A stretch of 36,806 nt of DNA from a virus. The stretch's first letter is position 1. Each line of letters starts with the position of its first letter. Both the position numbers and the translations under genes were made by a program. The DNA lies in the IMG/VR virus record IMGVR_UViG_3300045988_135475, positions 1 to 36,806 of that record, one strand, 5' to 3'. The notes under the pieces are model-generated. The model worked only from the letters and a program-made list of their open reading frames with translations, was not told where the DNA came from and made no database searches. Below are positions 6,633 to 30,511 of the stretch, in pieces.

Positions 6633-6637
6633 TTTAA

Positions 6638-6667: not shown

Positions 6668-6705
6668 GCCTATACAAAAGAATATGCTCATTATATTAAA
6701 AAATA

Positions 6706-7040: not shown

Positions 7041-7097
7041 AGGTATTATTAAGATAATGATAAGAACTTGCGGAGCATATCACTAAAACATTAACAA

Positions 7098-7107
7098 AAG
7101 TCGATAT
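7098..7107 (+). promoter_or_regulatory. AAGTCGATAT motif copy 2, 47 nt upstream of terS
   Basis: AAGTCGATATATTAAG; shared GC-containing 10-mer at operon heads. Confidence 0.35.
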
Positions 7108-7154
7108 ATTAAGTATAAAGTTGTTACATTGTTACAGGAGGTGATTAGTAAGAA

Positions 7155-7574
7155 ATGTATGAGTTTAAGGAACTAGATACTAGACAATTAAAAGCTATTG
7201 AATTACTTGCAAGTGGAGAAACTGTAAGGGTTGTAGCTGATTCAGTAGGGGTGAATAGAAAGACGGTATATGACTGGTTAAAAAAAGAGAATTTTAAAGC
7301 AGAGCTGGACAGGCAAGTCAAGGAATTAAAATCTAACGTTGAGAAGAAATTATTATCGAATGTTAATCCTTTCCTTGATGAACTTACTAAAATAGCCTTG
7401 TACAGTGATAGTGATAAGACTAGACTAGATGCTATAACTTATTGTATTAACAGGCTTGTAGGAACTCCAACTAAGGTCCAACAGGATATAACAGAGAAAG
7501 AAGAAATGCAAACAAATAGCAAAGCTGATATTCAAGAAATGTTGAAAAAGGTAAGACAAAAGAGTGCTATATAA
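7155..7574 (+). CDS. terS: terminase small subunit (HTH DNA-binding)
   Basis: N-terminal HTH (TVRVVADSVGVNRKTVYDWLKK); sits directly upstream of the large terminase; GGAGGTG RBS. Confidence 0.55.
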   Translation: MYEFKELDTRQLKAIELLASGETVRVVADSVGVNRKTVYDWLKKENFKAELDRQVKELKSNVEKKLLSNVNPFLDELTKIALYSDSDKTRLDAITYCINRLVGTPTKVQQDITEKEEMQTNSKADIQEMLKKVRQKSAI

Positions 7575-7815
7575 AAACTGCATGTTTTACCTAATATGCG
7601 CAGTTTTATTGAAGAATGACAGTATTACTTGTTTGTATAGGTATAGGATAATGCATTAAATAATTAAAATAACCAAAAGCGCAGTTTTATTTGTGTTTTT
7701 AGGCTAAAGTTTAGTAATTCTATACTTTATATGCCAAATAGGGGGTATGCTTCTATTTTGGTGTTTTGGGGGTATATGGCGGTAAGCTACACAAAATTTT
7801 ATCCCAAATTTTAAG

Positions 7816-8019
7816 TTGAGGGGAGTTTTAGAAATGAATTATTGCCATGAGTATGGTAGAAATGTTTTAATTAACCATATAATTGACTTATATCAAGAAT
7901 TAGAAGGTGAGTTTGACAAAGAAAGCATAGAGTTATGCAGAGATAGATTGAGTTTTAAAAATGATAGTGAATTGCTATTTGAATATGGGAAGAGTTATGA
8001 GCTGGTGTATGACAAGTAG
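7816..8019 (+). CDS. hypothetical protein
   Basis: 67-aa ORF between terS and terL, GAGGGGAG RBS. Confidence 0.35.
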   Translation: MRGVLEMNYCHEYGRNVLINHIIDLYQELEGEFDKESIELCRDRLSFKNDSELLFEYGKSYELVYDK

Positions 8020-8124
8020 GGAGGTGGGACTATTCTTTACTATGATAATAGAGAATTTGAAGAAATAGATGAATATGAATTATATGTATTAGATAAATTT
8101 CTAACCAAACATTACGGAGATGAA

Positions 8125-9762: not shown

Positions 9763-9772
9763 AGGTGAGATA

Positions 9773-11053
9773 ATGAAATACAATAGAGAAATAGTTTTAA
9801 GATTACAACAAGAATTTGATAAAAGAAAAATTGTTTATGCGAAAATGGGAAAATACTATCAAGGTAAAACAGATGCTTTTGAGCAATATCCTGTAACTGA
9901 TAGAAGTAATAGAAAAGTAAAAACTAATCATATAAAGATGTTTATAGATGAAGAAGTGGCTTACTTAACAGGTAATAAGTTGACTTATTTATGTGAAAGT
10001 GATGCTAATATTACAAGTGTTATAGAATACAACTTAAATAACATAAATAGCTGCTTAGATACAGAGTTGGCAACAACTTTATTAACTTATGGGACTGCAT
10101 ATGAATTATATTATTTATATGAGGGTGAGTTTAAGGCAAAGGTTATAAATCCATTACAAGGTATAGCATATAGAAATGTAGAGGGAAAAGCTGAATTATT
10201 TTTATATTTTTATACAAAGGAACTTGAAGATAATAAATATTACATAGATTGCTTTGATGATAATTATATATATCACTTTGATGAAGGGCTTAACGAAATA
10301 GCTCCACCAACAAAACATTATTTTGGTATTTGCCCTGTAGGGGTAGCAGAATTAAGTAACGGTGTAGCAGATACTATTTATAATTCTATAAAAGACTTAC
10401 AGGATAGTTATGAAAGTACCTTAAGCGATTGGAGCAATGAAATAGCAGATACTAGATTAGCTTATATGCTTATTACAGGAATGACTTTAGATGATGAAGA
10501 TGCTAAAAAAATGAAGTCTATGGGAATACTACAATGTCCGGATCCGGCAGGTAAGATTGAATGGCTTGTAAAAAATATACCTAGTGATTTTATAAAGACA
10601 TATAGAGAAACTTTAGAAGATGAAATGTATAAGGTAACACATCATTTAAAAAATCAAGTTGCAATTCAGAGTAATACAAGTGGTACAATGTTAGCTACTA
10701 GACTAAACTGCTTAAGAATAAAATTAACTACTATACATCAATGTTTAAATAATTGTATTAAGACTAGATTAAGATGCTTATTTAAATACTTAAATATTGT
10801 AGAAGGTACTGATTATAATTACAAAGATGTAAGTATTAAATTTACGTTGAATTTACCTAATAATGATTTAGAAATGGCTCAAATATTAAGCCAACTTACA
10901 GGAAAGTTAAGTATTCGTACAGGATTAAGCCAATTAAGCTTTGTTACTAATGCAGAAGAAGAGTATAACAAGATGATGGAAGAACAGGAACAAGCTTTAG
11001 GTGAGTTGGATTTGGATGTGATAAAAGATGAAACCGAACAAATATCAGCTTGA
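9773..11053 (+). CDS. portal protein
   Basis: 426-aa ORF immediately after terL, acidic C-terminus; call rests on position and size. Confidence 0.6.
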   Translation: MKYNREIVLRLQQEFDKRKIVYAKMGKYYQGKTDAFEQYPVTDRSNRKVKTNHIKMFIDEEVAYLTGNKLTYLCESDANITSVIEYNLNNINSCLDTELATTLLTYGTAYELYYLYEGEFKAKVINPLQGIAYRNVEGKAELFLYFYTKELEDNKYYIDCFDDNYIYHFDEGLNEIAPPTKHYFGICPVGVAELSNGVADTIYNSIKDLQDSYESTLSDWSNEIADTRLAYMLITGMTLDDEDAKKMKSMGILQCPDPAGKIEWLVKNIPSDFIKTYRETLEDEMYKVTHHLKNQVAIQSNTSGTMLATRLNCLRIKLTTIHQCLNNCIKTRLRCLFKYLNIVEGTDYNYKDVSIKFTLNLPNNDLEMAQILSQLTGKLSIRTGLSQLSFVTNAEEEYNKMMEEQEQALGELDLDVIKDETEQISA

Positions 11054-12028: not shown

Positions 12029-12634
12029 ATGAATAAAACTGAATTATTAGCATTAATCAATGAAGTTGATGATAATGCCGATATAGATGAAATTATATTA
12101 AGTAATGGTTTTGCAAAGCCTATTACAGATGTTGAAGGCTTAAATAAGCTACTCGAGAGCGACAAATCTTTACAGGGGTTATTTGATAAGAAGGTAACTA
12201 CTGGAATAGAAAATTTTAAAAAGAATGGTATGCAAAAGTTAATTGAAGCAGAAGTTCTTAAACGTACTGGTAAGAATGAAACACCAGAACAAAAAGAAAT
12301 TAGAGAACTAAAGGAAAGACTTGATAAGGCTGATAAGGAAAAAGCTAAAGCAGAAATGATTAGTAAGTATAAGGATGTATTAACTGAAAAGAAAATACCT
12401 TCTAATATGATTGATTTCTTATTGGCTCAAGATGATGAAACAACAGGAGCTAACATTGAGTTATTTGAAAATTCTATGAAACAATACATAGAAACAGGAA
12501 TAAAAGCAAAGTTAGGAGATTCAGAGTATACTCCACCAACAGGAGGAGGGAATGTAGGGAAAGTTACTTGGGAGCAGGTAATTGATAATCCTTCATTATA
12601 TAACACATATTTAGAACAAAACAAGGGGGAATAA
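12029..12634 (+). CDS. scaffolding protein
   Basis: Alpha-helical, K/E-rich 201-aa protein directly upstream of the capsid gene; GGGGGA RBS. Confidence 0.55.
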   Translation: MNKTELLALINEVDDNADIDEIILSNGFAKPITDVEGLNKLLESDKSLQGLFDKKVTTGIENFKKNGMQKLIEAEVLKRTGKNETPEQKEIRELKERLDKADKEKAKAEMISKYKDVLTEKKIPSNMIDFLLAQDDETTGANIELFENSMKQYIETGIKAKLGDSEYTPPTGGGNVGKVTWEQVIDNPSLYNTYLEQNKGE

Positions 12635-12637
12635 AAT

Positions 12638-13480
12638 ATGGCAATCACAGGTTTTAAGAAAACAGTTTGGGAAACTGCATTAATGACTGCGTGGAGAGGT
12701 GTATCAGTTGCAGATGTAATTACAACTCCACCAACAAGAGTAGAAGGGGAAAAGGCAATATTTAATACTGTATCTGGTGGGACTGTTAAAGACTATGATG
12801 GTACTATAAGTTATGAAGATGCTACTACTACTCCAATTGAATTAGCATTTGACCAAAAGAAATATTGGGCAATTAAATTAGATGATGTTGATAAGGTTCA
12901 AGCAGCTGGACCAGTATTAACAGTATTAGCACAAGAAAAAGCATTAGATCTAAAAGAAGCCATTGATACTGATTTATTAAAAGAAATGGCTAAAATACCA
13001 ACTGAGAGCAACAAACAGTTAATAGGAGAAACAGAGACAAAAAAATCTATAACTGAACCTAGTCAAGCTTATGACTTTGTTGTTGATTTAGGAACTATTT
13101 TATCAACTAATAAGTGTCCTATGGCTAACAGATTTGTTATAGCAAAAGCAGAGTTTATTAATTTAATGGCAAAGGATAAGAGATTTGCAGACAACTTCAA
13201 TGTTTTACCTAATGGAATTGTACAAGGGGCAACAATTAACGGGATGACAGTAATTCAATGTGAAGATTTGCCAGCTAATACAGTTTTATGTGTACATAAA
13301 TCAGCGTTTGGATATGCAGCACAATTAAATGAAACTGAAGCTTTAAGACTTGAAAATTCATTCTCTGATGCAGTAAGAGGATTAGCAGTTTTCGGAAGAA
13401 AAGCTTTAAGAACAAAAGGTATAGCTGGATTATTATATGAAATTTCTCCAGCAGAAATTGTTCAGCTTAGAAGAAAATAA
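12638..13480 (+). CDS. major capsid protein
   Basis: 280-aa ORF after scaffold, GGGGGA RBS; position-based call. Confidence 0.6.
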   Translation: MAITGFKKTVWETALMTAWRGVSVADVITTPPTRVEGEKAIFNTVSGGTVKDYDGTISYEDATTTPIELAFDQKKYWAIKLDDVDKVQAAGPVLTVLAQEKALDLKEAIDTDLLKEMAKIPTESNKQLIGETETKKSITEPSQAYDFVVDLGTILSTNKCPMANRFVIAKAEFINLMAKDKRFADNFNVLPNGIVQGATINGMTVIQCEDLPANTVLCVHKSAFGYAAQLNETEALRLENSFSDAVRGLAVFGRKALRTKGIAGLLYEISPAEIVQLRRK

Positions 13481-13497
13481 AGAAAGTTGGTGAATAG

Positions 13498-13776
13498 ATG
13501 AAATTTTCAGATTTAGATATAGAAAATATTTGTGTACAGGCTATTAAAGAATATTTAAATAAGCCTTTAACAGATGAAGAGGTTAAAAGTGAATATAGAG
13601 TAGCTTTGATGTACATGATTGAAGAAGCTAAAGAAATATTGAAAAATACTAAAAGTGGGATTTCATCTATTTCTCAAGGTTCACAAAGTATTTCTTATGA
13701 TTCTACTGTACAGGCTTTTAGGATAAACGAAAGTGTAAAGGCTTTATTACCAAAACCGAGTATAAGGTTATTCTAA
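13498..13776 (+). CDS. head-tail connector protein
   Basis: 92-aa ORF in the canonical post-capsid position. Confidence 0.4.
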   Translation: MKFSDLDIENICVQAIKEYLNKPLTDEEVKSEYRVALMYMIEEAKEILKNTKSGISSISQGSQSISYDSTVQAFRINESVKALLPKPSIRLF

Positions 13777-13789
13777 GGAGGATATTAAC

Positions 13790-14110
13790 ATGGTATTTTT
13801 TGCAGATGATGAATTATATAAAGTGATTCAAAATAAGATTAAAAATGAATTTGGGCAAGTAGTGACAACTTATACTAAAGAGCAATTACCATATATGGTT
13901 AATATCCAGCCTATAGAAGAAAAGTCAGTTAAATATACTTTTGGAGAAGATATTTCAAGTACATTACAAGCTTATACTGAAAAAGAAATGAATTTTTGTA
14001 TAGGTGATGTAGTAGTATTTGAAAATCTTGCTTATGAAGTTGAAAAGAAAGTTTCTTGGAAAAGTTATGACATTATTGCATTGAAAAGAGTTGATATTAA
14101 ATGGCAATAA
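13790..14110 (+). CDS. head closure / head-tail adaptor protein
   Basis: 106-aa ORF, AAGGAGG RBS, position. Confidence 0.4.
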   Translation: MVFFADDELYKVIQNKIKNEFGQVVTTYTKEQLPYMVNIQPIEEKSVKYTFGEDISSTLQAYTEKEMNFCIGDVVVFENLAYEVEKKVSWKSYDIIALKRVDIKWQ

Positions 14111-14427
14111 AGAAAACAAATAATATGAAAAAGATTATCAATAATTTGCAAAAAGGAGTTGAAAACTCTTTAGAGCAAGTTGGAGTTGCTGGAGTTGCCA
14201 ATATTCAAACTAATACACCTATAAAGAATGGGTATTTAAAGAGAAGTATGACTTTTAAAAAAGCTATAAAGGGTAAGAAATATAAAGTTACTTTCGGAAG
14301 TGCTTTAGATTATTCAATAATAGTTGAGTTTAAACCAAGTAGAGTACAAGGTTTCTTTAGAAATACATTAGCAAACTTTAAAGGTGAAGCTAAAGAAATT
14401 ATTGAAAGAAACATATCACGATTGTAG
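14101..14427 (+). CDS. tail completion protein (HK97 gp10-like by position)
   Basis: 108-aa ORF, translationally coupled to the upstream gene. Confidence 0.4.
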   Translation: MAIKKTNNMKKIINNLQKGVENSLEQVGVAGVANIQTNTPIKNGYLKRSMTFKKAIKGKKYKVTFGSALDYSIIVEFKPSRVQGFFRNTLANFKGEAKEIIERNISRL

Positions 14428-14809
14428 AGGTGATAATGTGAGTTTGAAAGTTAATAATAAAGAGATATATAAATTATTAAATGAATTTAATGTTTATATT
14501 GATGAATTACCTGTTAAAGATGAAGAGAATAGGGAGTTGGATTATTTAAACAATGTCTATGTTACCTATACTATAAAAAATGCAAGGGATTCAGTTTATA
14601 AAAATATATTTGACTTGGAATTACAAGTTATAACACATAAAAAGAATAAATTTGATGCGCAAGAAGTTGCAATTACAATTGATTCAATTCTTAATAAGAA
14701 AGTATTAAATGCTGCAAGAATAACAAGAAAAAATGCTTGGTTAGTTCTATTTATTGATGAAGATGATAAGCAGAATATTGTATTGCAGTATGACTTAAAT
14801 AAGTTTTAA
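14384..14809 (+). CDS. tail terminator-like protein (true start may be the internal GTG near 14436)
   Basis: 141-aa ORF immediately before the major tail gene. Confidence 0.4.
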   Translation: MKLKKLLKETYHDCRGDNVSLKVNNKEIYKLLNEFNVYIDELPVKDEENRELDYLNNVYVTYTIKNARDSVYKNIFDLELQVITHKKNKFDAQEVAITIDSILNKKVLNAARITRKNAWLVLFIDEDDKQNIVLQYDLNKF

Positions 14810-14823
14810 AAGGGGGTAAGAAA

Positions 14824-15393
14824 ATGGCAGTACCAGATATAAATATGAATGAAATTGTATGGGATTCAGCTACATTATATTATGGAAAGTTTGATTTAAC
14901 TAACATAGATACTCTAATGACACAATTAGAGGGGAAAGAGTTAGGGTTAAGTGATGGTGGTGTAACATTTACTTCTACACCAGAGATAAGACAAATACCC
15001 GTACAGGGGCATTTAGATAGAAAGTTGAAAGGCTTTGAAAGAATAATTAAGGTTGATGGAAAAGTAGAAGGTGAAATGTTAGTAGTTAATAAAAATACAT
15101 TAGAAATGTCTTTATACAAAAAGCAAACTACAACATCATCTAAGTATGAAAAGTATGTACCGCATACAGGGATAATAGAAGATGAAATGTATGGGGATTT
15201 ATTAGTAGTTGGAACAACTACAGGGGAAGTACCTGTAATAGTGCATATTCAAAATACTTATAATATGGAGTTTTCTTTAGAAACTGCTGACAAGGAAGAA
15301 GGAAAAGTTAAGATTAATTTTGAAAGTGCGTATGATCCTAAAAAAGATAAAGAGGTGCCAGTTGCTATTTATCTACCTAAGGGAGAAGAATAA
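14824..15393 (+). CDS. major tail protein
   Basis: 189-aa ORF, GGGGG RBS, followed by a strong terminator; position-based. Confidence 0.6.
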   Translation: MAVPDINMNEIVWDSATLYYGKFDLTNIDTLMTQLEGKELGLSDGGVTFTSTPEIRQIPVQGHLDRKLKGFERIIKVDGKVEGEMLVVNKNTLEMSLYKKQTTTSSKYEKYVPHTGIIEDEMYGDLLVVGTTTGEVPVIVHIQNTYNMEFSLETADKEEGKVKINFESAYDPKKDKEVPVAIYLPKGEE

Positions 15394-15420
15394 GGTAGTA
15401 GAAATACTACCATTTTTTTA
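15394..15420 (+). terminator. rho-independent terminator after the major tail gene
   Basis: GGTAGTA gaaa TACTACC followed by ATTTTTTT. Confidence 0.65.
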
Positions 15421-15440
15421 TATAGACGGAGGTTTCAAGA

Positions 15441-15890
15441 ATGGAATTAAATTTAAAAGGTAAACATATTTTCAGCTTAATAAAATTGATAAACAAGATG
15501 GATATAAAAAAAGAAATCAAGGAGTTTTTTAAAAGAGCAACTAAAAGTGATAGAAAGAAAAAAAATCTAACTATTAAACTTAAGTTGGCTTTAGGGGATA
15601 TGGAAAATAACCCTGTAAATGTAAATAAGGTTTTTCAAGAAAATGAAGAGTTAGCACAATGCTTTGAAGAGGTGCAAGAAGAAAAGAAAGACTTAATGCT
15701 TGATATAGCTTTCTTTGTAATGGAAAAGGCTGGACAAGGAGAGCAGGAGATATTTAAGTTATTAGCTGATATGTACTCTATGCCTGTACAGGAGTTTGAA
15801 GAGTTAGGCTTTAATGAAATGTTAGATGCAGTTATGAAAGTTATAAAAAATGAGGAAATACAACAGGGTTTTTTATCTATATTCAAATAG
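15441..15890 (+). CDS. tail assembly chaperone
   Basis: Acidic 149-aa ORF between major tail and tape measure genes. Confidence 0.5.
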   Translation: MELNLKGKHIFSLIKLINKMDIKKEIKEFFKRATKSDRKKKNLTIKLKLALGDMENNPVNVNKVFQENEELAQCFEEVQEEKKDLMLDIAFFVMEKAGQGEQEIFKLLADMYSMPVQEFEELGFNEMLDAVMKVIKNEEIQQGFLSIFK

Positions 15891-21878: not shown

Positions 21879-24002
21879 ATGATAACTAAAGTAATTAAAT
21901 TAGATATTAATAAAAAAATGTTTGAAACTATAACTGCAAAGCAAGGAGATACAAAAAGTAGATTTATTCTATTTAATTTATATGATGGACCTATACAATT
22001 TGATTTAACAGGCAGAACAGTTAGAGTGTATGGGAAAAAGAAAGATAATACAACAATATTTAATGATCTTGTAATAACTGATGCAAAAAAGGGTTATTGT
22101 ACATTAGAATTAACTAATCAAATGTTAGCAGTAGAGGGAATGAATGAATTAGAGTTAGTTATATTTGAAGGTGAAAAAAGATTAAGCACAATGCCATTTA
22201 TACTTAATGTAATAGGCTCAAAATATTCAGAAGATGCTATTGTAAGCACTAATGAATTTACTGCATTAATGAACGCATTGAAAACTGTAAGCAATATAGA
22301 TAATAAAGCAGAGAAAAAAGATGTAGAAGAACTTAGTTCGCAATTGGAAACTAAGGCGAATGATACTGATTTAAAAGTATTAGAAACTAGAATGGATACT
22401 TTTACTTCTTTAAAAGAAGATAGTACAACTGGCGATGCTGAATTAATTGACAGTAGATTAGATAGTAGTGGAAATGTATTTGATAACGTTGGTAAGAATA
22501 TTAGAAATATAGATTATATGTTGAAATCTATATTCAAACATACAGAAATAATAAATGAAACAATAACAACACAATCTAAAAGTTTATATTATAATTTCAA
22601 AATCGGTAAATATTATAAAATATCAATAACATGCCCTGCGACATATTCTTTTAGTTTTAAAAAAAGTGGTAAATTAAATACTATTATTTCAAATAAAACT
22701 AAAAATACCGAAGGTTTATATTTTTATTGTGACAAAGCATATACAGAAGTTATAACATATTCAAATCCTACAAGTGAATTAAAGTTAATCATTTCAGAAC
22801 TTTCAATAGATAATTCTAATATTAATCTATTGAATAATATAGATGAAAATAGTTTAGCTAATTTAGATAATGTAAGCAGAATTTTTATAAGCAGAGAATT
22901 ATTAAATTTTAAATTTACATCTTCACCTAATACACAAAAATGTGAGTTTAAAAAAGGTGTAAAGTATAAGTTTAATGTAAATAGCAATGATATTACTTAT
23001 TCAATATCGCTTTTACCAAGCTATCCTTCTGTAACAGGATATATACCTATAATACCTAATACAAATCAATCTAAAAATGATTTTGAATATATCCCCGAAC
23101 AAGATTTTACTGGTATTATGGTGTGGAATTCGACACCAGCGAGTGGAACAATAGATGTTCAAATAACAACTGATTCCGTTGATGGTAAATTGGTATATGA
23201 AGAAATTGAAAGTGAACTTAAAAATATATACTCTGCCTATTTCGGTGATTCAATCACAAGTGATGATGTAACAGGAATAGGAACTAGAGTAGCTGAGATA
23301 CTTGGGTGTAAGTTGACAGGAAACTTTGCGATAGGAGCTAGCACATGTTCTGATTTTCATAATAATGATACTAATTTAAGTGAAGTTAATTTATCAAGAC
23401 CTTCTAATACTTATGCAAGTATAAATGTACTTTCTAATCAAGTTAGAAGATGTTTACAATATACTACAGCAGCGGAAAGTCAAATAATTTGGAAACATAA
23501 ACTAGATGGAAGTTTTAATATAGATACGGCAAAGGGTGTTGGTCTTGGAAATACAGATAAGATACCTAATTTTATTTATATTGCAATAGGTACAAACGAT
23601 GGTATAGATTCAAAAACAGAAGTTGTTGATGATACTTCAACTGTATTTAGTCAAACATATTCACAATTAACTAGACTAAGCCTAGCTAGTGCATTAAGGT
23701 GGGCAATAGAAACTTTACAATGTGCTTATCCAAAAGCAAAAATATTTGTCGCTTCACCATTACAAACATCGAGGACAGAAGGGAATTTTTCTTATAATTC
23801 CAACTTACAAAAAAGAAATATAATAGAAAAGGTTTGTCAATTCTGTAGCGTTGAGTTTATTGATTCATTCAGTAGAAGTGGATATTCAACATTTAGAGCA
23901 AATGATAATGGTGATGGAATACATCCAGGAGCAGACTGGAAAGAAAGAATAGCTCAATTTATAGCAAATGAAATAAGAAATAAATATGTAGTTAATTCGT
24001 AA
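21879..24002 (+). CDS. receptor-binding / baseplate upper protein (BppU-like N-terminus) with C-terminal SGNH (GDSL) hydrolase domain
   Basis: C-terminus: FGDSITSDD (block I), IAIGTNDG (block III), DGDGIHPG (block V D..H); N-terminus resembles BppU_N. Confidence 0.6.
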   Translation: MITKVIKLDINKKMFETITAKQGDTKSRFILFNLYDGPIQFDLTGRTVRVYGKKKDNTTIFNDLVITDAKKGYCTLELTNQMLAVEGMNELELVIFEGEKRLSTMPFILNVIGSKYSEDAIVSTNEFTALMNALKTVSNIDNKAEKKDVEELSSQLETKANDTDLKVLETRMDTFTSLKEDSTTGDAELIDSRLDSSGNVFDNVGKNIRNIDYMLKSIFKHTEIINETITTQSKSLYYNFKIGKYYKISITCPATYSFSFKKSGKLNTIISNKTKNTEGLYFYCDKAYTEVITYSNPTSELKLIISELSIDNSNINLLNNIDENSLANLDNVSRIFISRELLNFKFTSSPNTQKCEFKKGVKYKFNVNSNDITYSISLLPSYPSVTGYIPIIPNTNQSKNDFEYIPEQDFTGIMVWNSTPASGTIDVQITTDSVDGKLVYEEIESELKNIYSAYFGDSITSDDVTGIGTRVAEILGCKLTGNFAIGASTCSDFHNNDTNLSEVNLSRPSNTYASINVLSNQVRRCLQYTTAAESQIIWKHKLDGSFNIDTAKGVGLGNTDKIPNFIYIAIGTNDGIDSKTEVVDDTSTVFSQTYSQLTRLSLASALRWAIETLQCAYPKAKIFVASPLQTSRTEGNFSYNSNLQKRNIIEKVCQFCSVEFIDSFSRSGYSTFRANDNGDGIHPGADWKERIAQFIANEIRNKYVVNS

Positions 24003-24120: not shown

Positions 24121-24543
24121 ATGGATAATTTATTGAACTATTTAAAAGGAGTTGTGGCAATAGTGGGAACTGCATTAACTTGGCTATTTGGTGCTTGGGA
24201 TACTGCATTGATGGTACTGGTGTGTTTCATGGCATTAGATTATTGTACAGGAGTAATAAGAGCCTTTATAAATAAGGAAGTATCAAGTGATATAGGACTT
24301 AAAGGAATAGCAAGAAAAGCAGTTATATTGATAGTTCTTATAGTTGCAGTATTATTGGACAGGCTATTAAATACAGGGACATGGGTATTTAGAACTATTG
24401 TATGTTATTTTTACATAGCAAATGAGGGAATAAGTTTATTGGAGAATTGCTCTGGATTAGGGTTACCTGTACCGGAATCTATACAAAATGCTTTAATTCA
24501 GCTTAAAGATGGGGAAAAGAAAGAATTAAATAAAGCAGAGTAA
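24121..24543 (+). CDS. holin (TcdE/UviB-like toxin-secretion/phage-lysis holin family)
   Basis: Three hydrophobic helices; LNYLKG..AIVGTALTWLFGAWD..LMVLVCFMALDYCTG is typical of the clostridial holin_4_1 family. Confidence 0.8.
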   Translation: MDNLLNYLKGVVAIVGTALTWLFGAWDTALMVLVCFMALDYCTGVIRAFINKEVSSDIGLKGIARKAVILIVLIVAVLLDRLLNTGTWVFRTIVCYFYIANEGISLLENCSGLGLPVPESIQNALIQLKDGEKKELNKAE

Positions 24544-24586: not shown

Positions 24587-25399
24587 ATGAATATTATAGA
24601 AACAAATTTAAACTTTGGGAATTTATCAAACTTAGGGGTAGTAAAAAGAATCATTTGTCATAATGCAGATGCATCAACATGTTCTATTGAAGATATAGAT
24701 AGATGGCATAAAAATAATGGATGGGCTGGTTGTGGATATCATTTCTATATTAGAAAAGATGGAACTATTTATAGAGGTAGACCAGAAAATAAGTTAGGAG
24801 CTCATACTTCTAACAATAATACAGGAAGCCTAGGAGTCTGCTTTGAAGGTAAATATAATACAGAAACAATGCCAGAAGCACAATTAAAGGCAGGACAAGA
24901 ATTAATTAAACATTTATTAGATAAGTATAAACTTAATAAATCTAATATATATAAGCATAAAGATTTTAATAATACAGATTGTCCCGGACATAATTTCCCT
25001 TGGACTAATATTATAAATGGAATAGATGGAGTAACTATTGATAATGTGACAGTTATTGAAACTCCAGCTAATAATATTAATGATACTGTAAAAGGTGATG
25101 ATTGGATCAGAAGATTACAACAAGAATGTAATAATCAAGGTTTTTCGAAACAAGTTGTAGATGGAATACCAGGACCAGCAACTTTAGCTGGATGTCCTAC
25201 TTTAAAGAAAGGAGCTCAAGGGAATATAACTAAGTTGCTTCAAGAGAAGTTAGTTAAACTGGGCTACAATACAAATGGAGTAGATGGAATATTTGGTAGT
25301 GGTACTCATTCAGCGGTAAGAGAATTTCAAAAAACTAGAGGACTTGCAGTAGATGGAATAGTAGGTCAAAATACTTGGAGAAAATTATTAAATATGTAA
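24587..25399 (+). CDS. endolysin: N-acetylmuramoyl-L-alanine amidase (Amidase_2/PGRP) with C-terminal peptidoglycan-binding repeats
   Basis: ICHNADAS..GCGYHFYI..AHTSNNN..DCPGHNFPW; two PG_binding_1-like repeats (DGIPGPAT, DGIFGSGTHSAVREFQ...DGIVGQNTWRKL). Confidence 0.85.
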   Translation: MNIIETNLNFGNLSNLGVVKRIICHNADASTCSIEDIDRWHKNNGWAGCGYHFYIRKDGTIYRGRPENKLGAHTSNNNTGSLGVCFEGKYNTETMPEAQLKAGQELIKHLLDKYKLNKSNIYKHKDFNNTDCPGHNFPWTNIINGIDGVTIDNVTVIETPANNINDTVKGDDWIRRLQQECNNQGFSKQVVDGIPGPATLAGCPTLKKGAQGNITKLLQEKLVKLGYNTNGVDGIFGSGTHSAVREFQKTRGLAVDGIVGQNTWRKLLNM

Positions 25400-25403
25400 T
25401 GGT

Positions 25404-25443
25404 AAATACTAGGTACTTAATTAGGTATCTAGTATTTTTTTTA
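25404..25443 (+). terminator. rho-independent terminator after the endolysin gene
   Basis: AATACTAGGTAC ttaatta GGTATCTAGTATT followed by TTTTTTTT. Confidence 0.5.
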
Positions 25444-25507
25444 AAAGGAATTTTTATACTTATGTAGAATTATATTATAGAATTGTTTTAAAGGGGGATA
25501 ACTACAT

Positions 25508-25666
25508 ATGATATGTCATAAATGTGATAGACAAGTAAATGGAAAGAAGAAGTTTAACTGGTTAATATTCTTACTATTAGTGTTTACAGGCTTTGGGTGG
25601 GCATTGTATTTACTATATTATTTCATTAAAAGACCTAAATGTGAATTATGTGGGTGTAAACTGTAG
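25508..25666 (+). CDS. small membrane protein with split zinc ribbon (CxxC - TM helix - CxxC), 52 aa
   Basis: CHKCDRQ...WLIFLLLVFTGFGWALYLLYYFI...CELCGC; GGGGG RBS; below track cutoff. Confidence 0.35.
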   Translation: MICHKCDRQVNGKKKFNWLIFLLLVFTGFGWALYLLYYFIKRPKCELCGCKL

Positions 25667-25739
25667 GGGAGCTTTAAGCTTCTCTTTTTTTATTGCTTTT
25701 ATTTCCGAAAAGGAAAATTAAGAAGAATTTAAAAAAATA

Positions 25740-25754
25740 ATTCCAAAATGGAAT
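25740..25754. promoter_or_regulatory. Operator-like inverted repeat ATTCCA-AAA-TGGAAT about 75 nt upstream of parM
   Basis: 19-mer ATTCCAAAATGGAATAATA identical to 30040-30058; same half-sites as the cI/cro operators. Confidence 0.55.
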
Positions 25755-25830
25755 AATAAAAGTTTTTTAATAATAGTATATAACAAAGAGATGAAAATCA
25801 TTAAAAATTAATTATTAGGAGGTAAAAGTA

Positions 25831-26721
25831 ATGATTATTGGAGTAGATTTAGGTAATTATGCAGTAAAAACAAGCACAGGAGTACATTTTTTAAGTAAAT
25901 TCATTGAAAGTAACGGATTTTACGGGAATGAGATTATTTATGATGATAAAGCGATAGTAGTAGGGGAGGGGGAATTTCAAACTGATTATAAGAAGAGTAT
26001 GAAAGAGAATACATTGCCATTACTATATAGTGCATTAGCTTTAAGTAATAAAGATGAACAATGTTTTCAAGTTGTATTAGGATTGCCTATACAACAATAT
26101 AAGAATAATAAAGCTGAACTAATAAACTTAATTGAAGATAATAGAGCAAAGACAGTAGAGGTTGATGGAAAGAAAAGAGATATATTCATAACAGATATAA
26201 CTATAGCACCAGAGGGTGCAAGTGCTTATTACAATTTAAGTAAAGAAAATAAGGCGGCTATAGGCAAGAAACAGTTAGTAATAGTTGATATAGGCGGAAG
26301 AACGACGGATGTTTGCTTATTTAAAGATAAAAAAATAAAGCAATATAAGACAGTACCAGGAGGTATGCTTAATATTTATAACGATATTGTTACAACTATA
26401 AATGAAGTATATAGTCAAAACTTCACTCTTGAAGATGGAGAAGAGGTGTTAAAAGAAGGTTTATTCTTAGATGGTGAATATAAAGATGTAAGTTTTATAA
26501 AAACTATTTTAAAAAGACAGTTCGATAGCATATTTAAGGAATTGCAATTAAATTTTAATGTTGATAAGGGGTATTTACTTCTTACAGGTGGTGGAGCTTC
26601 TACATTTAAAAAAGCATTTAAAAAAAGACTTAATAATGTAATAGTTAGTAAGGATAATGTTTTTGATAATGTAAAAGGATTTGTAAAGGTTGGTGAGCAA
26701 TTATGGCTAAACAACAAATAA
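25831..26721 (+). CDS. parM: actin-like segregation ATPase ParM/StbA family
   Basis: MIIGVDLGNYAVK (phosphate-1) and VIVDIGGRTTDV (phosphate-2) actin-fold motifs; LLLTGGGAS adenosine motif; AGGAGG RBS. Confidence 0.75.
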   Translation: MIIGVDLGNYAVKTSTGVHFLSKFIESNGFYGNEIIYDDKAIVVGEGEFQTDYKKSMKENTLPLLYSALALSNKDEQCFQVVLGLPIQQYKNNKAELINLIEDNRAKTVEVDGKKRDIFITDITIAPEGASAYYNLSKENKAAIGKKQLVIVDIGGRTTDVCLFKDKKIKQYKTVPGGMLNIYNDIVTTINEVYSQNFTLEDGEEVLKEGLFLDGEYKDVSFIKTILKRQFDSIFKELQLNFNVDKGYLLLTGGGASTFKKAFKKRLNNVIVSKDNVFDNVKGFVKVGEQLWLNNK

Positions 26722-26939
26722 GCATTAGCTTTAAAAATAATACTAAAGAAACTGAATTGTTTAGGATCATTAACTCTATAGAGGATAAGGCTGGAGAAAT
26801 TAAACCTATACTATATAAATATTTTGTGCTTGGATATAGATTTGCTGAAGAAAATGCAAGCAAGGGACAAGTGAATATTCAAATTAATAATGAAGTTGAT
26901 GAATATGAAGATGATGGGGTAGATGTAACTGATTTTTAA
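26703..26939 (+). CDS. parR: ParR-like small DNA-binding adaptor (putative ribbon-helix-helix)
   Basis: 78-aa ORF overlapping the parM end; N-terminal ISISFK beta strand + helix, acidic C-terminus. Confidence 0.4.
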   Translation: MAKQQISISFKNNTKETELFRIINSIEDKAGEIKPILYKYFVLGYRFAEENASKGQVNIQINNEVDEYEDDGVDVTDF

Positions 26940-27050
26940 TATGGTGGTACTACCACACTATTAGAATTTAGATAGTACAAGCTAATATGGTGGTAATGTG
27001 GTGGTAATTAACAAAAAATAGCCGATAAATGGTCGGTAACATATCGGTAG
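26940..27050. repeat. Candidate centromere/operator repeats: TGGTGGTA x3 incl. palindrome TGGTGGTACTACCACA, plus CCGATA..TATCGG inverted repeat
   Basis: ATGGTGGTA at 26941, 26986, 26997; CCGATAAATGGTCGGTAACATATCGG at 27022-27047. Confidence 0.5.
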
Positions 27051-27070
27051 AGTAGGGGAGAGGTTAGGTT

Positions 27071-27274
27071 ATGTTTGGAATAAAAGAGAAGAGTATAACA
27101 GGAAGAAAGAGTGAAGAGGAATTAAAAGTACACAGAATAACTGTACAGGTAAGTGCTAAGGAGAAAGAAAAGTTAAGAGTTCTTGCAAATAATAGAGGAA
27201 TGAGTATAAGTGATTACATTAGATATTTTTGTATTCATAAACCTTTTGCCAATAGATTTGAGGAGGACGAATAA
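27071..27274 (+). CDS. ribbon-helix-helix (CopG/MetJ-like) DNA-binding protein
   Basis: HRITVQVSAKEKEKLRVLANNRGMSISDYIRY fits the RHH beta-alpha-alpha pattern. Confidence 0.5.
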   Translation: MFGIKEKSITGRKSEEELKVHRITVQVSAKEKEKLRVLANNRGMSISDYIRYFCIHKPFANRFEEDE

Positions 27275-27278
27275 TAAA

Positions 27279-27614
27279 ATGTATGTTGATTTAAATTGTA
27301 TAGTTGAGCCAATAGCAACTTTAATATCATTAACATTCATATCTGGGCTTATAGCAATTACTATTTATAAACTTATTCAGAGTTGGGATTATGGAAAGGA
27401 AAAATATGAACTTAGAGAGCAAGAAGCTTTAAAGCAAAAGAGATTAGAAAATCTTAAATTAGAAAATTTAGAAGTAAACTTAACAGATGAAGATTTAGAA
27501 TTGTTAAAACTAATGAGTGGAAATAATTCAACTGTAAAAGGAACTTTAAGAAAGGCTTTAAGGGAGCATTTAGGTGATTTAAATAATTTTGAAAGATTAG
27601 AAGTGTACAAGTAA
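27279..27614 (+). CDS. small membrane protein with N-terminal TM helix and C-terminal coiled coil (alternative GTG start at 27210)
   Basis: GAGGAGG RBS; IATLISLTFISGLIAITIY TM segment, then heptad-like EQEALKQKRLENLKLENLEV. Confidence 0.45.
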   Translation: MYVDLNCIVEPIATLISLTFISGLIAITIYKLIQSWDYGKEKYELREQEALKQKRLENLKLENLEVNLTDEDLELLKLMSGNNSTVKGTLRKALREHLGDLNNFERLEVYK

Positions 27615-27643
27615 TAGTATTTAGTATTATATATTTTACTGAC

Positions 27644-27685
27644 ATTTTACTGACATTTTGAGGTTTTACTGACAGTATAGAAAAT
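27644..27685 (+). repeat. attP arm-type repeats TTTTACTGACAT x3
   Basis: Copies at 27644, 27656, 27674. Confidence 0.7.
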
Positions 27686-27726
27686 AAAAATAAACCGCTG
27701 ACACTAGTAATATCAACGGTTTGAAG

Positions 27727-27775
27727 TGGCACACCTAGTCGGATTCGAACCGACGACTTTTGGATTCGAAGTCCG
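27727..27775 (-). other. attP core: 3' portion (anticodon stem-loop to CCA) of a tRNA gene, tentatively tRNA-Arg (anticodon TCG)
   Basis: Minus strand reads GGA-CUUCGAA-UCC, AAGUC, GUCGG-UUCGAAU-CCGAC, UAGGUGU-G-CCA: T-arm, 7-nt acceptor 3' strand, discriminator, CCA; pairing breaks 5' of the anticodon stem. Confidence 0.65.
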
Positions 27776-27880
27776 TTATCAGTTTGTCCTTTTAGTATTT
27801 TTACAGGACAAGTGGTGTTATAAAGTCGCTTATTTTATAGCTTATAAGCATTGTTTGTCCCATATTATACTTTGTAAAAT

Positions 27881-27929
27881 TAACTGACATAAAAATTTTT
27901 ACTGACATTTTACTGACATGACAGTAAAG
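27881..27929 (+). repeat. attP arm-type repeats: TAACTGACAT, TTTTTACTGACAT, TTTACTGACAT plus inverted GACAGTAAA
   Basis: Same 10-mer family as 27644-27685, on the other side of the core and adjacent to int. Confidence 0.7.
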
Positions 27930-27942
27930 GATAAAATTAAAA

Positions 27943-27970
27943 GTGGACCAGATGGTCCACCTTATTTTTT
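27943..27970. terminator. bidirectional terminator at the int 3' end
   Basis: GTGGACC agat GGTCCAC, then CTTATTTTTT on + and UUUUAAUUUU on -. Confidence 0.55.
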
Positions 27971-29059
27971 ATATATTAAATTTTCGATTCTATTACTTGC
28001 ATCTCTTTCCAGTTGCTCCATTACATGAGTATATAAATTCATTGTAATTCCTATTTCGCTATGACCAAGCCTTTTTGAAGTTGTTTTTGCATCAACTCCA
28101 GCTAGGAGCATAAGACTTGCATTAGTATGCCTTAAATCGTGAAATCTAACATCGGGAAGTTTTCTTCTTTTAATATAATTCCTGTAAGGGGTATGGAAAC
28201 TTGCAGAAGATGCTTGCGTTCCATTTTCATTTGTAAATACTAAATTAGTATCATATCCCATTTGCTTTTGTTTTTCTTTATGTTCTTTTAATAGCTGCAT
28301 TAATTCCGTCGGAGCAGTTAAAACTCTTTGTGAACTTTCGCTTTTTGGCTCTTTAAATACTGCAATTTTATTTTTTTCATCCCATACACTAACCTTATCT
28401 ATTGTTATTATGTTATTATCAAAATCTACTTTAGACCACTCAAGACCACATATTTCAGAAAGTCTTAGTCCTAATCCAATAGCAAGATTAACAGGAACTT
28501 CATATCTACTTCCTTTTACTCCATCAAATAACTGCTTTACCTGTACAGGATCAAGAAAGTTAGCAGTAAATTTTTTAGGTTTTGGAGCTTCTACAAGTTC
28601 CATTATATTTTTATTTATGTACTGTAATCTATAAGCATCTTTGAAAGCTTTACTAAGCAATCTGTGATACTGCAGTTTAGTTTTTTCAGATAATCTGCTT
28701 AAACTGTTATAAAATTTATTAATTAGTAATGGAGTTACCTTTTGTAATTCAGTATTGCCCATAAATTGAATTATTTCATTAATGATAAGTTCATAACGGT
28801 TATATGTAGTTATAGATAATTTATTATACCTATCAGAATGCCACTCCCTTAAAAAGCTTTCTACAGTTAATTTATTAGGTATTATTAAATCATTGTTTAG
28901 CAGTTTATTTTTTTCTTTTATTAATAATTTATTAGCTTCTCGTGATGAATTAAAACTTCCAAGATTTTTTTGCTTTCTTCTATTATCATTATCACGATAT
29001 TCAACCATTACATAATACTTTGAATTTCTTTGTCTAATAAATACACTTAATATATCCAA
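27962..29059 (-). CDS. int: tyrosine site-specific integrase
   Basis: C-terminal catalytic signature GLRLSE..HDLRHT..LGHSEIGITMNLYTHV (R, HxxR, Y); TTG start, AAGGAG RBS. Confidence 0.9.
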   Translation of the reverse strand: MDILSVFIRQRNSKYYVMVEYRDNDNRRKQKNLGSFNSSREANKLLIKEKNKLLNNDLIIPNKLTVESFLREWHSDRYNKLSITTYNRYELIINEIIQFMGNTELQKVTPLLINKFYNSLSRLSEKTKLQYHRLLSKAFKDAYRLQYINKNIMELVEAPKPKKFTANFLDPVQVKQLFDGVKGSRYEVPVNLAIGLGLRLSEICGLEWSKVDFDNNIITIDKVSVWDEKNKIAVFKEPKSESSQRVLTAPTELMQLLKEHKEKQKQMGYDTNLVFTNENGTQASSASFHTPYRNYIKRRKLPDVRFHDLRHTNASLMLLAGVDAKTTSKRLGHSEIGITMNLYTHVMEQLERDASNRIENLIYKK

Positions 29060-29072
29060 TTATATCAACTCC

Positions 29073-29189
29073 TTATTTTTGATTATTACCAGGAGTGTTG
29101 GATTTATACTGACATCCAAAAACTATTTTCCCATTCTCCTTTATTTTGATAATTCTTTCTAGTAATTCTTTTTCTTTTTTATTTAACAT
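29073..29189 (-). CDS. small ORF (38 aa) between cI and int, containing one TACTGACAT arm-site copy
   Basis: AAGGTGGGG RBS 8 nt upstream of the ATG; stop lies just upstream of the int RBS; could be non-coding. Confidence 0.25.
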   Translation of the reverse strand: MLNKKEKELLERIIKIKENGKIVFGCQYKSNTPGNNQK

Positions 29190-29292
29190 TTTGTCCCCAC
29201 CTTATAATCCCATTTAATAATATATTATACTGTTTTTTCCTAAAAATAAATATGAGCTTATATGCTCATAAGAACGTATGTTCTAAAGTGTT

Positions 29293-29324
29293 CTAAAAAA
29301 AATACTGATAGCTTGTATCAGCAG
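29293..29324 (-). terminator. rho-independent terminator downstream of cI (minus strand)
   Basis: CUGAUA caagc UAUCAG followed by UAUUUUUUUU on the minus strand. Confidence 0.5.
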
Positions 29325-29326
29325 TT

Positions 29327-29674
29327 TTATTTATCAAGTAATTTATCTATATCAAATCCAACATCTTCAAGCTTTTTTATTAAGCTTTGTAATGTTTCTT
29401 TGTTTACATTTCTTTTATCGCCTTTAATTTCAATTTCGTAGTCTTGTGGTAAATATATAATAGAATTGTTTGGTTCATCAACTCTCCCATATAAATAATC
29501 AGTTGTAACATTAAAAAAGTCAGCTATTTGTTTTACAATTTCTCCGTTTGGAACTCTGCCAGAACAATATTTAGAAACTGTAGGAGCAGTAGCATTAATT
29601 TTTTGTGCAAATTCAGTTTGACTCAAGTGATTTTCATTTAAAAGCTGAGTTAACCTATCACCAAATATCTTCAT
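29327..29674 (-). CDS. CI-like phage repressor (XRE-family HTH; no S24 peptidase domain)
   Basis: LSQTEFAQKINATAPTVSKYCSGRVPNGEIVKQIADFFNVTTDYL; divergent from the cro-like gene. Confidence 0.8.
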   Translation of the reverse strand: MKIFGDRLTQLLNENHLSQTEFAQKINATAPTVSKYCSGRVPNGEIVKQIADFFNVTTDYLYGRVDEPNNSIIYLPQDYEIEIKGDKRNVNKETLQSLIKKLEDVGFDIDKLLDK

Positions 29675-29760: not shown

Positions 29761-29789
29761 TTGACAATGCCAAATTGGAATAGTATATT
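29761..29789 (+). promoter_or_regulatory. Rightward promoter (PR-like): TTGACA - 17 nt - TATATT driving the cro-like gene
   Basis: Consensus -35 at 29761-29766 and -10 at 29784-29789 with a 17-nt spacer. Confidence 0.55.
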
Positions 29790-29817
29790 ATATACATAAG
29801 CTATTCCAAATTGGAAT
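29767..29817. promoter_or_regulatory. Operators O1 (29767-29781, in the promoter spacer) and O2 (29803-29817, ATTCCA-AAT-TGGAAT)
   Basis: Inverted-repeat half-sites ATTCCA/TGGAAT with 3-nt spacer; O1 left half degenerate (TGCCA). Confidence 0.6.
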
Positions 29818-29831
29818 AAGGAGGTGAGAAC

Positions 29832-30056
29832 ATGTCAAATAACGTTGAGTTTTTTAGTAAAAGACTAGGCATTAGTAGAAAGGAAATAGCTGAAGCAATT
29901 GGAAAATCTACTAGAACAGTAGGGGAGAAGATTAATAATAATATCCCTTGGACACAAATGGAAATTATGCTTGTAACTAATTTACTTAAAACTAAAGACC
30001 AAAGTTTAAATGTAGAAACTATTTTTTTTAAAGAGCTTTATTCCAAAATGGAATAA
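29832..30056 (+). CDS. Cro-like HTH regulator
   Basis: LGISRKEIAEAIGKSTRTVGEKINN HTH; AAGGAGGTG RBS; divergent from cI. Confidence 0.6.
   Translation: MSNNVEFFSKRLGISRKEIAEAIGKSTRTVGEKINNNIPWTQMEIMLVTNLLKTKDQSLNVETIFFKELYSKME
30040..30054. promoter_or_regulatory. Third operator copy ATTCCA-AAA-TGGAAT at the 3' end of the cro-like gene
   Basis: Identical 19-mer to 25740-25758. Confidence 0.55.
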
Positions 30057-30090: not shown

Positions 30091-30369
30091 ATGCCAACTT
30101 TTAAATGGGGGAGCAGGAGAAAGAAGGCAATACAAATGATAAAACTAGAATACTACAGAATAAAAAAAGGGTTTACTGTGTATGGGCTAAGTAAGGCAAC
30201 AGGAATATCTAGGAGGCAGTTAGCAAGGATAGAAGATGGCACAAGTATGCCAACTGCATTAAAAATAATAGAAATCTGTTTAGCTTTAGATATTACACCA
30301 AATGAACTCTTAGGATGGGAGGAAATTTACAATGAGAAGAAGCGAATTACCAGAAGTAATGACAATTAA
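30091..30369 (+). CDS. second XRE-family HTH regulator (likely start ATG 30136)
   Basis: GLSKATGISRRQLARIEDGTSMPTALKIIEICLAL; GGGGGAGCAGGAG RBS before 30136. Confidence 0.65.
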   Translation: MPTFKWGSRRKKAIQMIKLEYYRIKKGFTVYGLSKATGISRRQLARIEDGTSMPTALKIIEICLALDITPNELLGWEEIYNEKKRITRSNDN

Positions 30370-30511
30370 AGATGTACAGGAATTTCTTAAGATAAGCAAA
30401 AATACAGCTTATGACTTAATAAAAAGAGAAGAGTTTCCGGTTGTAAGGCTTGGGAGATTATTAAGAATTAATAGAGAAAAGTTTCTTGAATGGTTTGATA
30501 AGGCAAGTTAG
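30332..30511 (+). CDS. xis: excisionase-like DNA-binding protein (AlpA/MerR-type Xis fold), 59 aa
   Basis: MTIKDVQEFLKISKNTAYDLIKREEFPVVRLGRLLRINREKFLEWF matches the excisionase-family HTH; below track cutoff. Confidence 0.5.
   Translation: MRRSELPEVMTIKDVQEFLKISKNTAYDLIKREEFPVVRLGRLLRINREKFLEWFDKAS

Follow-up and report, generated by a model that had tools for sequence, protein, structure and literature searches.

By its open reading frame (ORF) map and by PHROG and Pfam scans, the stretch of viral DNA analysed here (IMG/VR record IMGVR_UViG_3300045988_135475, 36,806 nucleotides, referred to below as the window) is a whole temperate tailed-phage genome, that of a Clostridium siphovirus-like temperate phage. 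It carries a gene for an actin-fold ATPase of the ParM/Alp family (parM) and, overlapping its end, a gene for a small ParR-like adaptor; genes for two ribbon-helix-helix (RHH) proteins, a phage attachment site (attP) and a tyrosine integrase gene (int) follow. Natural junctions in public assemblies demonstrate that the phage integrates into a tRNA-Arg(UCG) gene. We see an even chance that the ParM/adaptor module (parMR) moves or separates the non-integrated circular phage genome, during establishment and/or after excision, in the manner of AlpAC, and that the RHH pair serves for local regulation and possibly as a membrane anchor.

A ParM-type ATPase and its putative adaptor

25831-26721, plus strand: parM, 296 aa, actin-fold ParM/Alp-family ATPase
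26703-26939, plus strand: ParR-like adaptor (orf78), 78 aa, with a 19-nt overlap with the end of parM

The ParM protein carries the motifs DLGNYAVK (residues 6-13) and DIGGRTTD (residues 153-160) and matches Pfam ALP_N (4.2e-16, 59.9 bits, cut-off 26.3) and PHROG 691, a 'partition protein' (1.3e-57). Its best sequence relative of solved structure is Cb-cParM (PDB 7X54), detected with a single sequence (7.8e-19) and with a profile (1.3e-31), and the next ones are Alp12 and R1 ParM. When an AlphaFold2 (AF2) model of the protein (predicted local distance difference test, pLDDT, 82) was submitted to Foldseek, the top matches were all ParM/Alp proteins, 7X54 being first (template modelling score 0.77-0.80); MreB and FtsA ranked below them. 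The Pfam, PHROG, PDB and Foldseek matches thus bear out the original prediction, made from the DNA letters, of a ParM-type actin-fold ATPase with both phosphate motifs, and they place 25831-26721 with ParM/Alp and not in a non-segregation actin-like family.

The nucleotide-binding motifs (phosphate 1, phosphate 2 and adenosine: D6/G8, D153-D160 and T252-G255) are invariant in an alignment of 11 homologues. At least 410 ParM homologues are present in the protein collection, many of them titled 'ParM/StbA family protein' and coming from Clostridium species. Comparison of phages with different integrases gave ratios of nonsynonymous to synonymous substitution rates (dN/dS) of 0.04-0.06 for ParM and 0.08-0.19 for the adaptor. 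These values bear on the idea that the module no longer works and is left over from a phage-plasmid ancestor, to which an integrase was added later. P1-like phage-plasmids that have turned integrative do still encode replication and partition genes (PMC10879196), and distant relatives of this ParM are found on clostridial phage-plasmids. Such strong purifying selection, however, brings this idea close to refutation; every reading frame and nucleotide-binding motif is intact, and the same position is kept across dozens of species and with different integrases. Because selection opposes it, we consider a relic extremely improbable.

The adaptor consists of a conserved N-terminus with a strand-helix-helix pattern (so described from the sequence pattern and two predicted helices), a variable charged linker and an acidic tail that ends in VTDF. 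Its AF2 model comprises two helices and a disordered tail (mean pLDDT 66). An ORF of 52-137 aa abuts or overlaps the ParM gene in nearly all of about 37 Clostridial loci inspected, and all but a few of these adaptors start with M..K-ISVSFK, continue with two predicted helices and a charged linker, and end in hydrophobic-D/N-F. These features suggest that the 78-aa ORF of the window encodes a translationally coupled ParR-type adaptor with predicted DNA binding.

The phage integrates into a tRNA-Arg(UCG) gene

27636-27674, plus strand: left arm of attP, with three TTACTGACA arm-type repeats
27692-27722, minus strand: hairpin terminator that the phage brings along for the reconstituted tRNA, still present beside the complete tRNA in attR
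27727-27774, minus strand: 3' fragment of tRNA-Arg(UCG), 48 nt, inside attP
27761-27774: block common to attP and attB, TGGATTCGAAGTCC, 14 bp, anticodon stem-loop
27881-27927, unstranded: right arm of attP, with TAACTGACA, two TTACTGACA copies and an inverted TTACTGTCA
27962-29059, minus strand: tyrosine integrase, 365 aa, with an arm-binding N-terminal domain

The tRNA fragment gives a partial match to the Rfam tRNA model (22.4 bits), and ARAGORN detected no complete tRNA in the window. TTACTGACA occurs 5 times in the window against 0.41 expected, and all copies flank the core (27636-27674 and 27899-27918). The integrase matches Pfam Phage_integrase (PF00589, 5e-27), SAM-like (PF14659) and Arm-DNA-bind_4 (PF14657, 6.7e-7). 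A further arm-type repeat, ATACTGACA, lies at 29106-29114, some 50 bp ahead of the int start codon, and may serve int autoregulation.

A shorter pattern taken from the tRNA-like core was searched for and found in two metagenome contigs, one of which (L101) is the attP form and the other (L100) attR. L100 is 98.9% identical to positions 24984-27774 of the window and then continues with a tRNA 5' half, so that a complete tRNA-Arg(TCG) is recognized by ARAGORN. The actual host tRNA continues with ...GTCCAGC; an earlier guess at the host tRNA with a Watson-Crick anticodon stem (...GTCCAA) had given zero matches in viral and metagenome contigs. The other junction, attL, was found in L113, L120, L121 and L127 by lookup of the exact integrase or CI protein. 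In these contigs the int-side arm is joined to the native tRNA 3' half, followed by a host terminator and host genes. Only TGGATTCGAAGTCC is common to attP and attB. A relative whose ParM is 77% identical (L019) is integrated as well, beside a full tRNA-Arg(TCG).

The natural attR and attL junctions show that the phage integrates. Its lysogenic state is, at least commonly, an insertion into the tRNA-Arg(UCG) gene through the tyrosine integrase and a 14-bp core. The expectation of a full attP (tRNA 3' fragment and arm repeats) and an intact integrase downstream of parMR is thereby confirmed, as is that of a ParM/ParR-type pair directly beside a functional integration module.

The tRNA sequences themselves are not uniform. 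The phage-borne 3' half is unlike the native copies of the hosts (L113, L120 and L019) in the T-arm (GTCGG/CCGAC) and in the 3' strand of the acceptor stem (TAGGTGT). In the tRNA reconstituted in attR, C27 and A43 are mismatched and G1 pairs with U72, and host alleles of tRNA-Arg(UCG) vary between samples.

The same unit is found in integrated prophages of many Clostridium species

In order to evaluate the distribution of the unit, one genome per species was surveyed, which gave 35 ParM loci of the Clostridia type, 13 of them on contigs of at least 100 kb. ParM and adaptor lie at the lysis/att-proximal end of the prophage, after tail, holin and lysin genes, and in several genomes they abut host genes. 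The unit was found on a 3.86-Mb contig of C. botulinum, in integrated prophages of C. gasigenes and C. senegalense, and, in C. butyricum CBM588, on a complete replicon of 794 kb. A different phage, with a serine recombinase, carries this cassette as well (ParM 88% and adaptor 91% identical), and we found an integrated form (L013) and an attP form (L014) of it. All examined homologues of more than 55% identity belong to prophages of chromosomes or megaplasmids and none to a small plasmid; small plasmids carry distant ParM relatives only (at most 34% identity). Together, the spread, the shared design and the low dN/dS values argue that the unit is functional and that its pairing with integration is not rare in the genus. 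The combination of ParM with an integration module had been called uncommon in the original prediction, a view that this survey does not support.

Some of these loci hold additional elements. In L113 (GCA_015667565.1, JADPGK010000022.1; locus 6100-11000) a second element lies past the attL of this prophage, with putative arm repeats TGTCGTAAA/TGACGTAAA, a 446-aa protein, a 281-aa ParM (44% identical to Cb-cParM) and a 95-aa ORF; the arrangement resembles two elements inserted in tandem at one tRNA-Arg. In L097, L115 and L117 (C. botulinum, C. gasigenes and C. senegalense, respectively) recurrent genes stand downstream of ParM and adaptor, before host genes: ORFs of about 75 aa, about 140-164 aa (with one weak T4SS_pilin match) and about 80 aa, and a 773-796-aa protein for which no Pfam match was obtained. 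In L017 (Clostridium sp. UMGS990; locus 12500-15500) the ParM cassette is closely followed by an inserted IS21-type IstA/IstB element, and an apparent C-terminal fragment of a serine recombinase adjoins it.

The repeat arrays follow the RHH proteins and not the adaptor

26942-27006, unstranded: array A, with the palindrome TGGTGGTAcTACCACA at 26942-26958 and two direct (A/G)TGGTGGTAAT repeats, 11 bp apart, at 26988-27006
27021-27051, unstranded: array B, three repeats of the (T/C)CGGTA type, shortly before the ribosome-binding site of RHH67
27071-27274, plus strand: RHH67, soluble NikA-like/CopG-like RHH protein (Pfam NikA-like 1.7e-8, RHH_1 1e-4)
27279-27614, plus strand: orf111, with a transmembrane helix at the N-terminus, then a charged helix, and an RHH domain at the C-terminus

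Direct copies of TGGTGGTA are located at 26942, 26988 and 26999, an inverted TACCAC is found at 26951, and the whole window holds 5 copies of TGGTGGTA against 0.58 expected. The block of these repeats at 26940-27050 had been proposed as parC. Across the relatives, array A was seen only alongside the RHH gene, in eight lineages (the window, L013, L017-L020, L024 and L116), and it is missing from L021-L023 and L026, in which the ParM/adaptor pair is present and the RHH gene absent. The sequence of the array tracks the DNA-reading strand of the RHH protein: RITVQVS goes with (A/G)TGGTGGTAAT (GTGGTA) and RVV(V/A)HVT with TAGTGTACTA (GTGTAC), and the spacing of the repeats is 11 bp in both types. 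The N-terminus of the adaptor differs in L019 and its array is of the identical type. The adaptors of L024 and L097 (C. botulinum) are alike, whereas the array of L024 is different and L097 has none. Since the array covaries with RHH67 and not with the adaptor, array A is probably a predicted RHH67 binding array and not parC. As a primary reading of the TGGTGGTA array, parC was accordingly rejected on its co-variation with the RHH protein rather than with ParR, and the earlier proposal is probably wrong. Array B differs between two types of the membrane-anchored RHH protein, a comparison that is weak because it comprises two types only. From these patterns, the GTGGTA and CGGTA arrays most likely belong to the downstream RHH pair.

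The C-terminal domain of orf111 is paralogous to RHH67 (hhalign probability 95%, E 3.8e-8). An orf111-type gene of 85-111 aa, with no family assignment, comes next after the RHH gene in 8 of 8 lineages. By analogy, orf111 is a candidate membrane tether for DNA, and the RHH pair may serve for self-regulation and as a membrane tether for local phage DNA. When the RHH pair was compared with plasmids by blastn, no match was found. PADLOC returned no meaningful defence-system match, its single hit being a weak, chance-level one for orf111.

The motif GAGTAGGGGAG at 27052-27062, directly upstream of the RHH67 start, is kept in all eight lineages despite a diverged spacer, and it may be more than a ribosome-binding site. 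A similar motif, GTAGGGGAG, is found at 25663.

The parM promoter shares palindromes with the immunity region

25665-25685, plus strand: terminator-like hairpin that closes the lysis/orf52 unit
25703-25715 and 25741-25753, unstranded: two TTCC-N5-GGAA palindromes in the parM promoter region, 38 bp apart, candidate switch-repressor operators
29327-29674, minus strand: CI-type repressor (HTH_3), 115 aa
29761-29816, plus strand: PR-like promoter TTGACA-17-TATATT, with a near-copy TGCCAAATTGGAA in the spacer (29768-29780) and TTCCAAATTGGAA at 29804-29816
30332-30511, plus strand: HTH_17 protein, 59 aa, candidate excisionase (PF12728 is listed for the identical gene)

The hairpin at 25665-25685 ends the lysis/orf52 unit, which indicates that parM has a promoter region of its own. 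Perfect copies of TTCC-N5-GGAA number 4 in 36.8 kb against 0.19 expected, and none lies outside the parM promoter and the PR/Cro region. In the latter, TTCCAAATTGGAA (29804-29816) lies between the -10 element of the PR-like promoter, a strong one, and the Cro-like gene, and another copy stands at the end of the Cro-like gene (30041-30053). As these palindromes are common to the parM promoter and to the PR/immunity region, expression of parM is probably coupled to the switch between lysis and lysogeny. The sites are kept in L019, a near relative in backbone with a different adaptor strand. L013 and L014, which have the same adaptor and another immunity region with TCACAAAnAGTGA operators, are without them; a dedicated small helix-turn-helix (HTH) gene is found upstream of parM in these two, likewise in most other relatives. 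The TTCC-N5-GGAA sites therefore go with the phage backbone and not with the adaptor type, and the simplest reading of this pattern is that a regulator of the switch controls parM. When the small HTH_3 genes of the relatives were compared with the CI, Cro-like and HTH proteins of the window in search of the regulator of TTCC-N5-GGAA, generic HTH similarity alone was obtained.

The gap between the endolysin gene and parM also holds a 52-aa ORF (25508-25666) with CxxC...CxxC and a central hydrophobic helix, as in a zinc-ribbon membrane protein. It is 90% identical in L019; in most relatives a gene for a 66-aa HTH_3 regulator occupies this position.

The free circular genome and the role of the module

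The first 55 bases of the window are identical to its last 55. This terminal overlap indicates a circular assembly and a genome of 36,751 bp (29% G+C) with intact attP. Contigs of about 35-38 kb with intact attP are numerous in public assemblies. Circular contigs are equally expected from virion, induced or replicating DNA, from which assemblies cannot separate a plasmid. In PHROG scans of 20 ORFs from the early region, the only replication-related products were a primase-helicase, a single-stranded DNA-binding protein (SSB), an Erf-like protein and nucleases. The replication genes found are solely in this region, downstream of the PR-like promoter, and no plasmid-type replication initiator was found near parMR. 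A dual plasmid and integrative lifestyle, as put forward in the original prediction, is thus upheld in part: integrated and circular attP forms both occur in public assemblies, but they do not demonstrate a stable plasmid prophage, and no initiator is coupled to parMR.

In the mechanism that we favour, the adaptor would bind phage DNA at a centromere, and its conserved C-terminal tail would capture ParM filaments. These filaments would then move or separate copies of the extrachromosomal phage circle, either after infection and before integration, or after excision during replication, or at both times. Such a role would be that of AlpAC of CGP3 and not the upkeep of a permanent plasmid prophage.

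Several observations weigh against this mechanism. The leader 5' of parM, where a parC for the window-type ParR was looked for, is conserved among the window, L013, L017 and L018 and holds no iterated motif. An RHH/ParR fold of the adaptor was searched for in Pfam (with 28 family members), by PDB profile search and by Foldseek with the AF2 model, all with negative results, and hhalign against the RHH67 family was negative too (0.7% probability); classification of the adaptor as RHH/ParR was dropped on these four grounds. The timing of expression is a guess, since the predicted operators might bind CI, which would keep parM off in lysogens, or Cro, which would leave it on in lysogens. Lysis genes lie on one side of the module and attP on the other, in a place where cargo genes expressed by prophages are often found, and this location would fit a role in lysogeny. 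Finally, parM, attP and int are contiguous in 10 of 10 contigs among the matches listed for the exact ParM protein, with 0 contigs above 50 kb in 97 index blocks, and the exact CI protein was found at 10 dereplicated places, 7 in the attP form and 3 integrated. These counts indicate that a frequent free circular state is real.

Such a state is what a facultative phage-plasmid would show, that is, a low-copy circle that is partitioned by ParMR and that also integrates, its state depending on the host, for example on the match to the tRNA-Arg allele. The window closes through its 55-bp overlap with attP intact, attP-form contigs of 34-38 kb are many and no contig with the exact ParM exceeds 50 kb; yet packaged or induced DNA would yield circular contigs too, and integrated junctions are common. 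ParMs of 31-34% identity do reside on real extrachromosomal replicons (phiSM101, 42-47-kb C. difficile plasmids and 46-51-kb C. perfringens plasmids), but the closer homologues described above belong to prophages of chromosomes and megaplasmids. The hosts vary in their tRNA-Arg alleles, some of which have only 14 bp in common with the phage. Primase-helicases such as N15 RepA and P4 alpha can drive plasmid replication, and the 692-aa primase-helicase of the phage is of this kind; parMR itself has no linked initiator, and the replication genes are downstream of the PR-like promoter. On balance, we regard a facultative phage-plasmid as possible but rather unlikely.

A more elaborate version of it, which we consider unlikely, would have a four-protein apparatus (ParM, the adaptor, the soluble RHH protein and the membrane RHH protein that would bind the array) wired to CI/Cro. 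Whenever it is outside the chromosome, for instance where the match to tRNA-Arg is poor, the phage would then persist as an actively segregated episome tethered to the membrane, and so be a facultative phage-plasmid; the published 'chromosome-encoded ParMs' would be prophage cargo with no part in chromosome segregation.

The module might also be cargo that is expressed in lysogeny and directed at other DNA, either through partition incompatibility or exclusion of same-type plasmids, phage-plasmids and prophage circles, or through an effect on the host chromosome or cell cycle. Its location between lysis genes and attP, with its own promoter and with terminators ahead, would suit such a function. 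In L113, two adjoining elements at one tRNA each have a ParM/adaptor pair, and the two pairs are unlike. ParM and the adaptor tail vary greatly in sequence, and in C. perfringens plasmid incompatibility is set by the ParMRC family (PMC9426499). The authors of the Cb-cParM study likewise propose roles beyond plasmid segregation (PMC12270681). Incompatibility requires just ParR and parC, however, while the ATPase is the most conserved component here (dN/dS 0.04-0.06), and PADLOC found no known defence system beyond the chance-level orf111 hit. We therefore hold a cargo function of this type to be distinctly unlikely.

Action on the free circle, before integration and/or after excision, remains the reading that we prefer. 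If it is true, temperate phages of Gram-positive anaerobes would possess a dedicated cytoskeletal step in the establishment of lysogeny or in replication. To our knowledge, a step of this type has so far been documented experimentally only for CGP3. Public metagenomes are rich in this phage, with its exact proteins present in about 100-280 index blocks of the collection, and a protein 100% identical to RHH67 is named from Clostridium saudiense, so the host is likely a culturable gut Clostridium. With an abundant phage and a likely culturable host, coverage, junction and deletion experiments are feasible.

Other features of the phage genome

1947-2411: dUTPase, among the early/replication genes
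2865-4943: primase-helicase, 692 aa, early region
7155-7574 and 8125-9762: terminase
up to 24002: structural genes
24121-24543: holin
24587-25399: amidase
after the attP/int region: CI-type repressor, Cro-like and HTH genes, HTH_17, sigma factor, Erf-like protein, SSB and ERCC4 nuclease

A megablast search of GenBank phages with positions 25500-29400 returned no close relative. Among otherwise near-identical phages (L003-L012 and L102-L114), the tail/receptor-binding genes at 21879-24002 differ. Products of these distal genes include a polysaccharide deacetylase, an acyltransferase, a beta-helix protein of 560 aa and a GDSL lipase of 597 aa, besides BppU_N (707 aa) plus GDSL lipase, and host-range modules thus seem to be swapped as cassettes. 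In L012 and L106 an additional tyrosine recombinase is found directly upstream of the holin gene.

Comparison with known systems

A counterpart in function would be AlpAC/alpS of the CGP3 prophage of Corynebacterium glutamicum, in which an actin-like protein and a DNA-binding adaptor are likewise carried by an integrating prophage. Induction of AlpAC from the integrated CGP3 comes early, and the excised circle depends on it to replicate efficiently (Donovan et al., NAR 2015, PMC4446434). It acts on excised circular DNA, its adaptor binds repeats in its own promoter, and phage DNA reaches the membrane (PMC4446434). Unlike the phage of the window, CGP3 is cryptic and actinobacterial, and no membrane-anchored RHH partner has been described for it.

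In sequence and structure, the best match to the window ParM is Cb-cParMRC of C. botulinum Bf (PDB 7X54/7X3H; about 27-30% identity). In both cases a small ParR-type gene adjoins parM and palindromic repeats lie near the operon, and the C. botulinum system is chromosome-encoded. Cb-cParM polymerises, and its ParR binds three palindromic repeats in gel shift and depolymerises aged filaments (Ali et al., J Biol Chem 2025, PMC12270681). That study lists an N-acetylmuramoyl-L-alanine amidase, a Cro/CI regulator and a replication initiation factor as conserved neighbours, treats Cb-cParM as chromosomal and never mentions phages (PMC12270681), whereas phage context, attP and integration junctions are explicit for the window. 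Among the loci fetched here, nothing exceeded 44% identity to Cb-cParM, and in the phage collection only phiSM101 was found, at 31%. Taken with the prophage contexts reported above, this list of neighbours suggests that Clostridium 'genome-encoded ParMs' such as Cb-cParM are prophage cargo, and prophage carriage would be a simple explanation for these puzzling genes.

With type II ParMRC systems (R1, pSK41, pCBH; Alp12, Alp7A) the module shares the ParM fold, the order of parM and then adaptor, and repeats near the operon. It differs from them in that the element integrates, the adaptor matches no ParR family and the main repeat array tracks another protein. Clostridial phage-plasmids (phiSM101, vB_CpeS-1181 and 42-51-kb plasmids of C. 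difficile and C. perfringens) also have ParM followed by a small ORF beyond the lysis genes, which in phiSM101 encodes 80 aa and ends in GIDF. Their ParMs are 27-34% identical to that of the window, a plasmid replication protein adjoins parM, and no integrase is annotated nearby; in the window, attP and int occupy the spot that is held by the replication protein in the phage-plasmids. In practice, a ParM gene by itself is no basis for calling a phage-plasmid.

For orf111 alone, an analogy may be drawn with p16.7 of phi29. This small integral membrane protein, which has a reported MreB interaction, binds the DNA of the phage and organises replication of that DNA at the membrane (PMC4974454; PMC4446434). 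The two are not homologous, the DNA-binding part of orf111 being an RHH domain. Set against all these systems, a predicted membrane-anchored RHH partner and candidate operators in common with the immunity switch are possibly the novel features of the module in the window.

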